In this document: one piece after another, positions 5,467-12,084 of the stretch | How the letters are laid out: each line of letters starts with the position of its first letter | How positions within the stretch are numbered: the first letter of the stretch is position 1 | Assembly: GCF_003334305.1 (NCBI RefSeq) | Contig: NZ_QOWS01000009.1 | Length of the DNA: 64,000 nt | From: Escherichia coli | Lineage (GTDB): Bacteria; Pseudomonadota; Gammaproteobacteria; Enterobacterales; Enterobacteriaceae | Strand: one strand, 5' to 3' | Notes under the pieces: model-generated | The model's input: only the letters and a program-made list of their open reading frames with translations | Told to the model about the DNA's origin: nothing | The model's database searches: none | Made by a program: the position numbers and the translations under genes

Positions 5467-6858
5467 ATGCTGGCTTTCTTAAACCAGGTTCGCAAGCCGA
5501 CCCTGGACCTTCCGCTCGAAGTGCGGCGCAAAATGTGGTTCAAACCGTTCATGCAATCCTACCTGGTGGTCTTTATCGGCTACCTGACGATGTACCTGAT
5601 TCGCAAGAACTTTAACATCGCGCAGAACGACATGATTTCGACCTACGGGTTGAGCATGACGCAACTGGGGATGATCGGCCTGGGTTTCTCCATCACTTAT
5701 GGCGTGGGTAAAACGCTGGTTTCCTACTACGCCGACGGCAAAAACACCAAACAATTCCTGCCGTTTATGCTTATCCTGTCTGCCATTTGTATGCTGGGCT
5801 TCAGTGCCAGTATGGGCAGCGGCTCGGTTAGCCTGTTCCTGATGATTGCCTTCTACGCCTTAAGCGGCTTTTTCCAGAGTACCGGCGGTTCGTGCAGTTA
5901 CTCCACCATCACCAAATGGACGCCGCGTCGTAAACGCGGGACATTCCTCGGTTTCTGGAATATTTCTCACAACCTTGGCGGTGCAGGCGCAGCAGGTGTG
6001 GCGCTGTTCGGGGCAAATTACCTGTTCGATGGCCATGTCATCGGCATGTTTATCTTCCCGTCGATTATCGCGCTGATTGTCGGTTTTATCGGCCTGCGTT
6101 ACGGTAGCGACTCCCCGGAATCTTATGGCCTCGGCAAAGCTGAAGAACTGTTCGGCGAGGAGATCAGCGAAGAGGACAAAGAGACAGAATCTACCGATAT
6201 GACCAAGTGGCAGATCTTTGTTGAGTATGTGCTGAAAAACAAAGTGATCTGGCTGCTGTGCTTCGCCAACATTTTCCTCTATGTGGTACGTATTGGTATC
6301 GACCAGTGGTCAACCGTATACGCGTTCCAGGAACTGAAACTCTCTAAAGCGGTGGCGATTCAGGGCTTTACGCTGTTTGAAGCTGGTGCGCTGGTCGGTA
6401 CGCTGCTGTGGGGCTGGCTCTCTGACCTGGCGAACGGTCGCCGTGGCCTGGTGGCCTGCATCGCGCTGGCGTTGATTATCGCCACGCTCGGTGTGTATCA
6501 ACATGCCAGCAACGAATATATCTATCTGGCTTCTCTCTTTGCGTTGGGTTTCCTGGTCTTTGGCCCGCAATTGTTGATTGGTGTGGCTGCTGTTGGCTTT
6601 GTACCTAAAAAAGCGATTGGCGCTGCCGATGGTATTAAAGGCACCTTTGCTTACCTGATTGGTGACAGCTTTGCCAAGTTAGGTCTGGGAATGATTGCCG
6701 ATGGGACGCCGGTATTCGGCCTTACCGGCTGGGCAGGCACATTCGCCGCACTTGATATCGCCGCGATTGGTTGTATCTGCCTGATGGCGATAGTGGCGGT
6801 GATGGAAGAACGCAAAATCCGCCGCGAGAAAAAAATTCAGCAGTTGACAGTGGCATAA
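5467..6858 (+). CDS. uhpT: Hexose-6-phosphate:phosphate antiporter UhpT
   Basis: 463-aa MFS protein, [33 protein letters not shown]...; SD AGGAG upstream. Confidence 0.97.
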
Positions 6859-8669: not shown

Positions 8670-8843
8670 ATTTTTCTCATTTTAATTTTATCAATTTGAT
8701 TATTATTTATCATAAAGAAACGTCGCGAGATTATTAAAGAATATCCATTAATGTGCAATTGAAATGTGATAATTATCACTGAACCGTTGTTGTCATTTGT
8801 TTTACAAAAGCAAGGGATTAAATCTCCTCCAATGGACAAAAAA

Positions 8844-10178
8844 ATGAATAATGACAATACCGATTACGTGAGTAATGAATCAGGGACGCTTTCGCGATTA
8901 TTTAAACTACCTCAGCATGGGACCACCGTCCGCACAGAATTGATTGCGGGGATGACCACTTTTTTAACCATGGTGTACATCGTTTTTGTGAACCCGCAAA
9001 TCCTCGGCGCGGCACAAATGGACCCGAAAGTGGTGTTTGTTACCACCTGTTTGATTGCCGGTATCGGCAGTATTGCGATGGGGATATTTGCTAACTTACC
9101 CGTGGCGCTGGCTCCGGCAATGGGGCTGAACGCCTTCTTTGCCTTCGTGGTCGTGGGGGCGATGGGCATCTCCTGGCAGACCGGGATGGGCGCAATATTC
9201 TGGGGCGCAGTTGGACTATTTTTGCTCACGCTGTTTCGTATCCGGTACTGGATGATCTCCAACATTCCCTTAAGTTTACGTATTGGTATCACCAGCGGAA
9301 TTGGATTATTTATCGCCTTAATGGGATTAAAAAATACTGGCGTTATTGTCGCCAATAAAGACACGCTGGTGATGATTGGCGATTTAAGTTCTCACGGCGT
9401 GTTGTTAGGTATTTTAGGGTTTTTTATTATAACCGTGTTGTCATCACGTCATTTTCATGCCGCGGTGCTGGTTTCTATTGTGGTGACGTCTTGCTGTGGA
9501 TTATTTTTCGGTGATGTTCATTTTAGCGGCGTCTATTCCATTCCGCCTGATATTAGCGGCGTCATTGGTGAAGTAGATTTGAGCGGCGCGTTAACACTTG
9601 AACTCGCCGGTATCATTTTCTCCTTTATGCTGATCAACCTATTTGATTCATCAGGAACATTAATTGGTGTAACTGATAAAGCGGGCTTAATAGATGGTAA
9701 CGGTAAATTCCCCAATATGAATAAGGCGCTGTATGTTGATAGCGTCAGTTCGGTGGCGGGTGCGTTTATCGGCACCTCGTCTGTTACTGCCTATATTGAA
9801 AGTACTTCTGGTGTGGCAGTCGGTGGCCGCACGGGGCTGACTGCGGTTGTGGTTGGCGTTATGTTCCTGTTGGTTATGTTCTTCTCACCGCTGGTGGCGA
9901 TGGTTCCTCCTTACGCAACCGCCGGAGCGTTAATCTTTGTTGGCGTGCTGATGACTTCGAGCCTGGCGCGCGTTAACTGGGATGATTTTACCGAATCGGT
10001 GCCTGCGTTTATTACCACGGTGATGATGCCCTTTACTTTCTCGATCACCGAAGGGATTGCACTCGGCTTTATGTCGTACTGCATCATGAAAGTGTGCACC
10101 GGGCGCTGGCGCGATCTGAACCTGTGTGTGGTGGTGGTCGCAGCTCTGTTTGCACTGAAGATTATTCTGGTGGATTAG
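8844..10178 (+). CDS. adeQ: Adenine permease (NCS2/AzgA family)
   Basis: 444 aa from internal ATG (MNNDNTDYVSNESGTL...) of ORF 8766..10178; polytopic transporter. Confidence 0.9.
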   Translation: MNNDNTDYVSNESGTLSRLFKLPQHGTTVRTELIAGMTTFLTMVYIVFVNPQILGAAQMDPKVVFVTTCLIAGIGSIAMGIFANLPVALAPAMGLNAFFAFVVVGAMGISWQTGMGAIFWGAVGLFLLTLFRIRYWMISNIPLSLRIGITSGIGLFIALMGLKNTGVIVANKDTLVMIGDLSSHGVLLGILGFFIITVLSSRHFHAAVLVSIVVTSCCGLFFGDVHFSGVYSIPPDISGVIGEVDLSGALTLELAGIIFSFMLINLFDSSGTLIGVTDKAGLIDGNGKFPNMNKALYVDSVSSVAGAFIGTSSVTAYIESTSGVAVGGRTGLTAVVVGVMFLLVMFFSPLVAMVPPYATAGALIFVGVLMTSSLARVNWDDFTESVPAFITTVMMPFTFSITEGIALGFMSYCIMKVCTGRWRDLNLCVVVVAALFALKIILVD

Positions 10179-10230: not shown

Positions 10231-10683
10231 ATGATCTGGATAATGCTCGCCACGCTGGCAGTGGTGTTTGTGGTTGGTTTTCGGGTGCTGACATCCGGGG
10301 CCAGAAAAGCGATTCGCCGTCTCAGCGATCGGCTGAATATCGATGTCATACCCGTGGAGTCGATGGTCGATCAAATGGGAAAGTCAGCCGGTGACGAATT
10401 TTTACGTTATTTGCATCGTCCGGATGAGTCGCACCTGCAAAACGCCGCGCAGGTGTTGCTCATCTGGCAAATTGTCATTGTCGATGGTAGCGAACAGAAC
10501 CTGCTGCAATGGCATCGGATTTTACAAAAAGCCCGTCTTGCCGCGCCGATTACCGATGCTCAGGTCAGGCTGGCGCTGGGGTTTCTGCGCGAAACCGAAC
10601 CTGAAATGCAGGATATTAATGCTTTTCAGATGCGCTATAACGCGTTCTTTCAGCCTGCCGAGGGCGTTCACTGGCTGCATTAA
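10231..10683 (+). CDS. yicN: DUF1198 family small membrane-anchored protein YicN
   Basis: 150 aa from internal ATG (MIWIMLATLAVVFVV...) of ORF 10204..10683; N-terminal TM helix. Confidence 0.8.
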   Translation: MIWIMLATLAVVFVVGFRVLTSGARKAIRRLSDRLNIDVIPVESMVDQMGKSAGDEFLRYLHRPDESHLQNAAQVLLIWQIVIVDGSEQNLLQWHRILQKARLAAPITDAQVRLALGFLRETEPEMQDINAFQMRYNAFFQPAEGVHWLH

Positions 10684-10689
10684 AACCGC

Positions 10690-10757
10690 TTCGTCTTATC
10701 AGCCTACAGACCGCGCCTGACCTGTCGGGTGGATAAGACGTTCACGCCGCATCCGGT
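10690..10757. repeat. REP/BIME-like extragenic palindromic repeat units
   Basis: cgtcttatcagcctacag and ggataagacgttcacgccgcatccgg resemble the REP consensus (GCCGGATGCGGCGTGAACGCCTTATCC) in opposite orientations. Confidence 0.55.
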
Positions 10758-10893
10758 AATCTTTGCCCTGTTCCGTTTCGATCTTAACTCCAGCTCAAGC
10801 AACACCGTAAAAGTTGCAAAAACGTTAAATGCGTCACACATTTCAATGTTAAAGTGGTCGGCTTTTCCCCTGAAACATGCGACGGGTAACACC

Positions 10894-12084
10894 ATGAGTG
10901 AATTTATTGCCGAAAACCGCGGCGCGGATGCCATCACCCGACCGAACTGGTCAGCCGTTTTCTCGGTGGCGTTTTGTGTCGCCTGTCTGATTATCGTTGA
11001 GTTTTTGCCCGTCAGTTTGTTGACGCCAATGGCCCAGGATTTAGGCATTTCGGAAGGGGTTGCCGGGCAATCGGTGACCGTGACCGCCTTTGTGGCAATG
11101 TTTGCCAGTTTGTTTATTACCCAGACAATTCAGGCCACTGACCGCCGCTACGTTGTTATTTTGTTTGCCGTTTTGCTGACGCTCTCCTGCTTGCTGGTTT
11201 CCTTTGCTAACTCATTCAGTTTGCTTTTAATCGGTCGTGCCTGTCTGGGGCTGGCGCTGGGCGGGTTCTGGGCGATGTCGGCGTCGCTGACCATGCGTCT
11301 GGTACCGCCGCGTACGGTGCCGAAGGCGCTGTCGGTGATCTTCGGCGCGGTTTCTATTGCGCTGGTGATTGCCGCGCCGTTGGGCAGTTTTTTAGGCGAG
11401 CTTATCGGTTGGCGCAATGTCTTTAATGCGGCGGCGGTGATGGGCGTGCTGTGTATTTTCTGGATTATCAAATCATTGCCTTCACTGCCAGGCGAACCCT
11501 CGCATCAGAAACAAAATACTTTCCGCTTATTACAACGTCCGGGTGTGATGGCAGGGATGATCGCCATCTTCATGTCTTTCGCCGGGCAGTTTGCTTTCTT
11601 CACGTATATTCGCCCGGTGTATATGAACCTGGCGGGATTCGGCGTGGATGGCTTAACGCTGGTGCTGTTGAGTTTTGGTATCGCCAGCTTTATTGGTACG
11701 TCGCTTTCGTCGTTCATTCTTAAACGTTCGGTAAAACTGGCCTTAGCAGGCGCGCCGTTAATACTGGCTGTGAGTGCGTTGGTACTGACGTTGTGGGGAA
11801 GCGATAAAATCGTTGCTACCGGCGTGGCGATTATCTGGGGGCTAACTTTTGCATTGGTTCCCGTCGGCTGGTCAACGTGGATCACCCGCTCGCTGGCCGA
11901 TCAGGCAGAAAAAGCCGGGTCTATTCAGGTGGCGGTTATTCAGCTTGCTAATACCTGTGGCGCGGCAATCGGCGGTTATGCGCTGGATAATATTGGTCTG
12001 ACTTCGCCGTTGATGTTGTCCGGCACATTGATGTTGCTGACTGCATTGTTGGTTACTGCAAAGGTGAAAATGAAGAAATCCTGA
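10894..12084 (+). CDS. nepI: Purine ribonucleoside efflux pump NepI (MFS)
   Basis: 396 aa from internal ATG ([20 protein letters not shown]...) of ORF 10729..12084. Confidence 0.9.

Follow-up and report, generated by a model that had tools for sequence, protein, structure and literature searches.

The analyzed locus lies within a stretch of 64,000 nucleotides of Escherichia coli DNA, hereafter called the window (64 kb, taken at its full length), in which the chromosomal gene order of E. coli, adeQ (8766–10178), yicN, nepI, yicS, and nlpA, is present. The yicN coding sequence is located at 10231–10683 on the plus strand and encodes a DUF1198 protein of 150 amino acids, with the stop codon at 10681–10683, as indicated by the list of open reading frames and by the RefSeq annotation of a strain identical to the window over 401 nt around the REP pair. 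The nepI coding sequence is located at 10894–12084 on the plus strand and encodes a protein of 396 amino acids from an ATG start at 10894, in accordance with RefSeq annotations, a conserved MSE start, and an upstream frame that is not conserved. The spacer between the two genes is 213 nt long, and a pair of REP-derived units fills 67 bases of it shortly after the yicN stop codon. The original prediction from the letters of the DNA had placed two REP units of opposite orientation right after yicN, at 10690–10757; the pair was borne out as REP-derived units, and the coordinates proved correct to within 1–2 nt. When a 401-nt query around the REP pair was compared by megablast with 5426 complete E. 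coli genomes, the locus was matched in 5404 of them, with 100% identity to strain H15. K-12 MG1655 is also identical to the window over 10690–10758, and in its coordinates the unit proximal to yicN (unit 1) is at 3,841,926–3,841,941 and the distal one (unit 2) at 3,841,875–3,841,909. REPs and BIMEs have been described in E. coli since the 1980s. A full-text literature search on yicN returned nothing relevant, and the copy of NC_000913.3 that we used contained no REP or repeat_region features in the stretches examined, including 5565–5669, where the GenBank K-12 record presumably annotates RIP1.

REP families were defined de novo by counting 12-mers in 200 kb of K-12 MG1655 (four loci), in which the most repeated words assembled into the two classical REP families, Y, with the word GTAGGCCGGATAAGGCGTT(T/C)ACGCCGCATCCGGCA, and Z, with the word GTAGGCCTGATAAGACGCG..AGCGTCGCATCAGGCA. 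A profile HMM was then built from an alignment of the 61 REP instances (46 distinct) found in the same 200 kb and was run by nhmmer against the whole 64-kb window. As a result, unit 2, a degenerate Y-type REP on the plus strand at 10724–10758 (GTCGGGTGGATAAGACGTTCACGCCGCATCCGGTA), was found to be the sole significant match in the window, with 10731–10756 aligned at a score of 24.4 bits and an E-value of 1.8e-6, and the best score obtained in 50 shuffled windows, 14.4 bits, was below it. Against their own profile, the 61 K-12 REPs score 21–42 bits with a median of 37.6, so that unit 2, at 24.4 bits, is a real but degenerate REP. Searches by consensus strings were less informative; the REP tail consensus CTTATCMGGCCTAC had no match in the 64-kb window at up to two mismatches, and the REP head pattern was found 15 times against 8 expected, which is barely above chance. 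Such strings are too strict for a unit as decayed as unit 2, and a profile was therefore needed. At the density of K-12, with about 580–600 REPs in its 4.6 Mb, some eight would be expected per 64 kb, and the window, with one significant REP, is therefore REP-poor.

Unit 2 resembles the E. coli Y-type REP in its length of 35 nt, in the core GGATAAG(G/A)CGTTCACGCCGCATCCGG, in being extragenic and just downstream of a stop codon, and, as far as hand pairing shows, in the position of the AA/GC mismatch. It differs in that it begins with GTCG (10724–10727) instead of GTAG, that the lower stem GCC/GGC has become GGT/GGT by the changes CC to GT and C to T, that one G-to-A change has occurred in the upper stem, and that an additional mismatch (AAGACG) is present. 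Pairing unit 2 by hand left the upper stem recognizable, as well as the place of the AA/GC mismatch, whereas the lower stem was lost and an extra A–C mismatch was present. Its own minimum-energy fold is not the canonical REP hairpin and has an energy of −9.6 kcal/mol, less than half the stability of the canonical Y (−20.9 kcal/mol). Rfam holds a single curated family that is based on REPs, naRNA4 (RF02564, derived from REP325), which matches 10727–10767 at 20 bits (E = 0.3), below its gathering threshold of 59.5 bits, and this match reflects the shared REP unit only. Judged from its sequence, unit 2 is thus a mutated member of the Y type by descent, similar to the profile, extragenic, and belonging to a multicopy family (61 copies in the 200 kb of K-12), and, with GTAG lost, it is not a canonical one.

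Unit 1, on the minus strand at 10692–10707, corresponds to the head half of a Z2-type REP, GTAGG-CTGATAAGACG, and aligns by nhmmer to model positions 2–18 with a score of 5.1 bits. This corresponds to an E-value of 2.1 across the 64-kb window and of 0.03 within the 213-nt spacer, and shuffled windows contained a mean of 1.68 comparable matches each. Unit 1 alone is, therefore, at chance level window-wide, and its status rests on comparative evidence. The score of a REP model had been proposed as the check on the pair, and it was passed by unit 2 but not by unit 1 on its own. To the comparison were taken 57 loci from other species, which were gathered with YicN and among which four non-coli Escherichia lineages (L010, L011, L012, which is E. 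whittamii, and L013) were informative. In all four, a full Z2 REP, TGCCTGATGCGACGCTGGCGCGTCTTATCATGCCTAC, occupies the unit 1 site directly after AACCGCTT, which trails the yicN stop codon; this full copy is 37 nt long, scores 37.2 bits in L011 and L013, and is followed by a linker of 16–17 nt and then by a Y REP that starts with GTAG. Colinear alignment indicated that E. coli lacks 20 nt of the Z2 (TGCCTGATGCGACGCTGGCG, the tail arm) and 1 nt of the head. The undeleted Z2 allele was found in none of the 5426 complete E. coli genomes, and the matches at the yicN locus end exactly at the base where the deletion starts, indicating that the deletion is fixed in E. coli.

Thus, as read from the full copies at the same site, unit 1 is a true Z2 remnant, and the REP/BIME identity that had been proposed for the pair was upheld for this unit through the sister species. 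The remnant matches the E. coli Z2-type REP in the head half, GTAGG(C)CTGATAAGACG, and differs from it in that the 20-nt tail arm and one head base are absent and no palindrome is left; with a match restricted to model positions 2–18, it is not a complete palindromic Z2 unit. The ancestral full Z2, as preserved in the sister species, has the same sequence as the Z2 variant next to rayT in K-12, GTAGGCATGATAAGACGCGCCAGCGTCGCATCAGGCA (GTAGGCATGATAAG...). A derivation of the 3′-terminal codons of yicN, stop codon included (tggctgcattaa), from the missing Z2 tail arm was also considered; this was ruled out by the conservation of the YicN C-terminus, ...WLH*, which is kept in many genera that have no REP downstream.

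The two units are arranged head-to-head and are separated by a linker of 16 nt, AGACCGCGCCTGACCT, at 10708–10723, between CTAC (10704–10707) and GTCG (10724–10727). In the REP/iREP terms used by Ton-Hoang et al. (PMC3333891), unit 2, with GTCG, is a REP, and unit 1, with CTAC, is an iREP when read on the plus strand. Head-to-head REP linkers in K-12 range from 11 to 36 nt, and the linker of the BIME that flanks rayT there, AACTTGTGCCTGAACG, has the same length as that in the window and resembles it only loosely, with matches at 9 of 16 positions by hand count. The whole order of Z2, 16 nt, and Y is colinear with this REPtron-flanking BIME at rayT (yafM), and the two share the head-to-head arrangement and have a similar linker core (GCCTGA.C). 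They differ in that the pair in the window is single and not tandem, is truncated, and has no adjoining rayT gene. As for the class, an inverse pair of Y and Z2 with a short linker, the composition of a BIME-2, is present, intact only in the sister species and truncated in the window, whereas tandem copies with S and s/l/r linker motifs are absent, no further REP being found in the spacer or the window. Since there is a single pair and not a tandem array, the full definition of BIME-2 does not apply, and the most fitting name for the pair in the yicN–nepI spacer is that of an atypical or degenerate remnant of a BIME. The name BIME given in the original prediction holds insofar as a REP pair in inverse orientation is present, although the element is a decayed head-to-head one and not an intact BIME. 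Outside Escherichia, the Citrobacter freundii complex (four loci) carries a head-to-head pair at the equivalent position, in which a short Z1-like unit is combined with a Y-like one; the pair starts 6–8 nt after the yicN stop codon and abuts the conserved block upstream of nepI, and it may go back to the same ancient insertion or to a separate one into this site. In C. amalonaticus, Klebsiella indica, Cedecea, and others, the yicN–nepI spacer contained no REP.

The tail of unit 2 coincides with the boundary of a larger polymorphism. The megablast matches of about 1736 genomes split at query position 199, which is window position 10758, the last base of the Y REP, and this places the left breakpoint of a cassette that is present or absent at 10758–10759. 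The cassette allele, with both junctions, was found in 1717 of the 5426 genomes (32%), and the cassette-free allele, as in the window, in 3668 (68%). The cassette is about 800 bp long, follows the REP pair (for example, at L001 2690–3488, and in O157:H7 strains), and consists of two genes on the minus strand, one of which encodes a RelE-family toxin (Pfam PF06296, E = 6.5e-39) and the other an HTH antitoxin with sub-threshold matches of the NadS/MqsA type. It stands in place of 41 nt at 10759–10799, a segment specific to the cassette-free allele, which, on comparison of the window, L001, and L012, bears only a loose resemblance to what flanks the cassette on the right. Both alleles occur with the same junctions in other Escherichia, L011 and L013 having the cassette and E. 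whittamii being without it. A cassette of the same family, with 70–84% amino-acid identity, is also present in the same spacer without any REP in Klebsiella indica and in one genome of C. amalonaticus, whereas another C. amalonaticus genome has no cassette; the polymorphism, therefore, does not need a REP. In other Citrobacter genomes, the spacer carries other cargo as well, namely a different toxin–antitoxin pair on the plus strand, unrelated to the E. coli cassette (five loci), and an ORF of 175 amino acids (six loci), and it looks like a recurrent landing site for small cassettes across the Enterobacteriaceae. The simplest explanation for a breakpoint exactly at the REP tail is that the REP pair sits between yicN and the cassette. 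The toxin–antitoxin polymorphism is useful as a strain marker, and the recurrent landing of cassettes is a familiar pattern. A possible third REP remnant after the Y tail in the cassette allele (GTAGGTGAACGCATTATCTAC) was also considered and was rejected, as it gave no profile match even at E-values up to 10.

On the other side of the REP pair, a long open reading frame for nepI runs from a GTG at 10729 and does overlap unit 2, as had been pointed out in favor of the shorter nepI start at 10894. The shorter start is correct, and the overlap with a REP is a weaker argument for it than annotation and conservation. In RefSeq, K-12 and a strain without differences from the 401-nt query both have the nepI start at the equivalent of window position 10894 (396 amino acids), and the ATG with the N-terminus MSE... 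is conserved across genera from Escherichia to Citrobacter. Furthermore, the in-frame stretch upstream of it, 210 nt in the window, is closed by stop codons after 0–147 nt in the orthologues. The 55 codons by which the nepI frame extends upstream are, thus, not coding. Immediately upstream of nepI, a conserved block on the plus strand at 10800–10860 (…GTTGCAAAAACGTTAAATGCGTCACACATTTCAATGTTAAAGTGG) is kept in Escherichia, Citrobacter, and Klebsiella indica, and contains a direct repeat (D2), AACGTTAAA/AATGTTAAA, whose copies lie at a distance of 24 nt, together with a small inverted repeat, AAATG...CATTT. This block is probably the promoter/operator of nepI and is not part of the REP element. 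A simple sigma-70 scan found no promoter, and a PurR box was considered for its palindrome and was set aside by eye owing to a misfit in half-site spacing.

With regard to the transcript of yicN, the heads of both units are predicted by ViennaRNA to pair in an inter-unit hairpin at 10692–10740 on the plus strand, with an energy of −20.3 kcal/mol. In this structure, 10692–10700 pairs perfectly with 10732–10740, and 10702–10709 pairs with 10722–10730 with one mismatch. The hairpin could form on single-stranded DNA or on the transcript of yicN, and its first base pair lies 8 nt beyond the stop codon of this gene. It is followed by TTCACGCC, without a U-tract, and no terminator-like site was found in 10684–10890, so that it is not an intrinsic terminator. 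The folding energy of the 101-nt region gave a z-score of −1.14, with 26 of 200 shuffled sequences folding at least as well, so that the region is not unusually stable; moreover, two inverted REP heads pair automatically, and their pairing is therefore no sign of selection for a structure. REPs are known as 3′ structures that form a barrier to 3′–5′ exonucleases, and the hairpin could, by analogy, protect the 3′ end of the yicN mRNA. Because it lies within 15 nt of the yicN stop codon, it is also a possible brake on termination, and it could slow this step and lower YicN output in the manner summarized in PMC12306157, according to which a REP that lies closer to a stop codon than 16 nt lowers translation. 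The resemblance to REP-stabilized 3′ ends and to translational down-regulation by REPs consists in a predicted hairpin of −20 kcal/mol 8 nt past the yicN stop codon and in an intact Z2 at the same distance in the sister species; the difference is that the hairpin would form between two units and not within one REP.

Taken together, we consider, with a probability of roughly 0.8, that the pair is a decayed, vertically inherited remnant of a BIME of the form Z2–linker–Y, which would be an immobile relic in this genome, with the predicted fold as its residual capacity. The identity of both units, their homology to intact copies, and the deletion with its fixation are established by the comparisons described above. 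In the proposed course of events, a BIME pair would have been resident in the yicN–nepI spacer by the time of the last ancestor shared by the sampled Escherichia lineages, if not earlier; in E. coli, the Z2 tail arm has been lost by the 20-nt deletion, together with one further base, and the Y unit has gathered substitutions, including the change of GTAG to GTCG in the window and K-12. GTAG and the stem mismatch are required for the REP-associated transposase of E. coli (PMC3333891), and the enzyme tolerates no substitution in GTAG, any change abolishing its activity (PMC8266576). The Y unit of the window is, thus, probably no longer a substrate for TnpAREP/RayT, that is, it would not be bound, cut, or copied, and unit 1 keeps GTAG without a palindrome. 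The designation as an immobile relic is made because of GTCG, the lost lower stem, the extra mismatch, the weak fold of unit 2 itself (−9.6 kcal/mol), and the missing palindrome of unit 1. It is limited to the allele of the window and K-12, since GTAG is present in the cassette-bearing allele of E. coli, as it is in the sister species.

Other explanations of the pair were weighed against this reading. That it might be a chance similarity, with no REP at all but a G+C-rich spacer containing a small inverted repeat, would agree with the E-value of 2.1 for unit 1 alone across the window, with the absence of matches to the CTTATCMGGCCTAC tail consensus at two or fewer mismatches, and with the naRNA4 score of 20 against 59.5 bits; this explanation, which we regard as hardly credible, is refuted for unit 2 by its profile score (24.4 bits, E = 1.8e-6), which no shuffle reached, and for unit 1 by the full copy in orthologous position, since the sister lineages have at this place a Z2 that is intact and, with GTAG, a better Y. 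The uninterrupted frame of 451 amino acids from 10729 to 12084 raises the alternative that the stretch is coding, with nepI starting at the GTG at 10729 and the REP-like sequence forming an N-terminal extension of NepI. We assign practically no probability to it, as RefSeq and K-12 have 396 amino acids from an ATG equivalent to 10894, as the extension is closed by stop codons in the orthologues while the MSE start is conserved, as a cassette of about 800 bp on the opposite strand interrupts the supposed extension in 32% of E. coli genomes, and as the extension would begin inside a repeat element. It is also conceivable that the BIME still functions, as a DNA-level site for a protein (gyrase or IHF) that shapes supercoiling between yicN and nepI. 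Gyrase is known to bind BIME-2 and IHF to bind BIME-1/RIP, and the element, at a locus matched in 5404 of 5426 genomes, is retained in nearly all E. coli; its derivation from Z2 and Y units, moreover, corresponds to the composition of BIME-2 (PMC3333891). However, at the divergence of E. coli, a short neutral sequence would be expected to be retained in any case, only one and a half units are left with half of the Z2 deleted, the linker of 16 nt is too short for the long L linker that carries an IHF site, and the stem of the Y unit is weakened (−9.6 vs −20.9 kcal/mol). In addition, BIME-2 elements normally occur as tandem multiples with intact Y and Z2 (PMC3333891), whereas there is a single pair here. 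A functional BIME of this kind is, thus, very unlikely.

The cassette bears on a further alternative, in which the REP is an active recombination site and its tail is the point of insertion and excision of the cassette through breakage by RayT or gyrase. In E. coli as in other Escherichia species, the breakpoint falls precisely where the Y REP ends (10758/10759), REPs are documented as targets for insertion sequences (PMC1525189), and TnpAREP cleaves beside REPs (PMC3333891). On the other hand, the same cassette family occurs without a REP in Klebsiella indica and C. amalonaticus, the latter having both alleles, and the cassette junctions showed neither a target duplication nor terminal repeats. 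Furthermore, the alleles differ strongly over the adjoining 41–60 nt, which is less in keeping with recent site-specific events than with old alleles swapped by homologous recombination in the flanks, and the coincidence of the breakpoint with the REP end is also expected if the REP pair was inserted between yicN and a resident cassette. An active recombination site is therefore judged unlikely. The wider proposal that the Y REP tail is the site of gain and loss of the RelE-family cassette and that breakage by REP/RayT drives the polymorphism across Escherichia is judged slightly more unlikely still; if true, it would mean a REP-driven presence/absence polymorphism in a spacer acting as a hotspot for cargo across the Enterobacteriaceae.

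As a decayed BIME remnant, the pair is nothing new in kind and is an ordinary, familiar intergenic repeat. Its value for annotation is that K-12 3,841,875–3,841,941 can be marked as a REP remnant, and it provides a clean example of BIME decay in place, in which the deletion of an arm is fixed in a species and is followed by the loss of GTAG. Decay has taken a different course elsewhere in the genus. In E. albertii (L015), yicN is followed by a diverged Z2 tail arm only (TGCCTGATGCAATGCTGGCG, with three mismatches) and then by unrelated sequence, and nepI was not found downstream of yicN either there or in L014. The decay of the BIME differs between lineages, since E. albertii keeps a diverged copy of the arm that was lost in E. 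coli. Separately, strain GF130 (L002 2625–2660) has a deletion that extends from the BIME linker, after GCGCCTG, into nepI, equivalent to window positions of about 10719 to about 11240; it occurs at a short GCCTG microhomology and removes the Y unit and the N-terminus of NepI, and nepI is annotated as a pseudogene in this strain.
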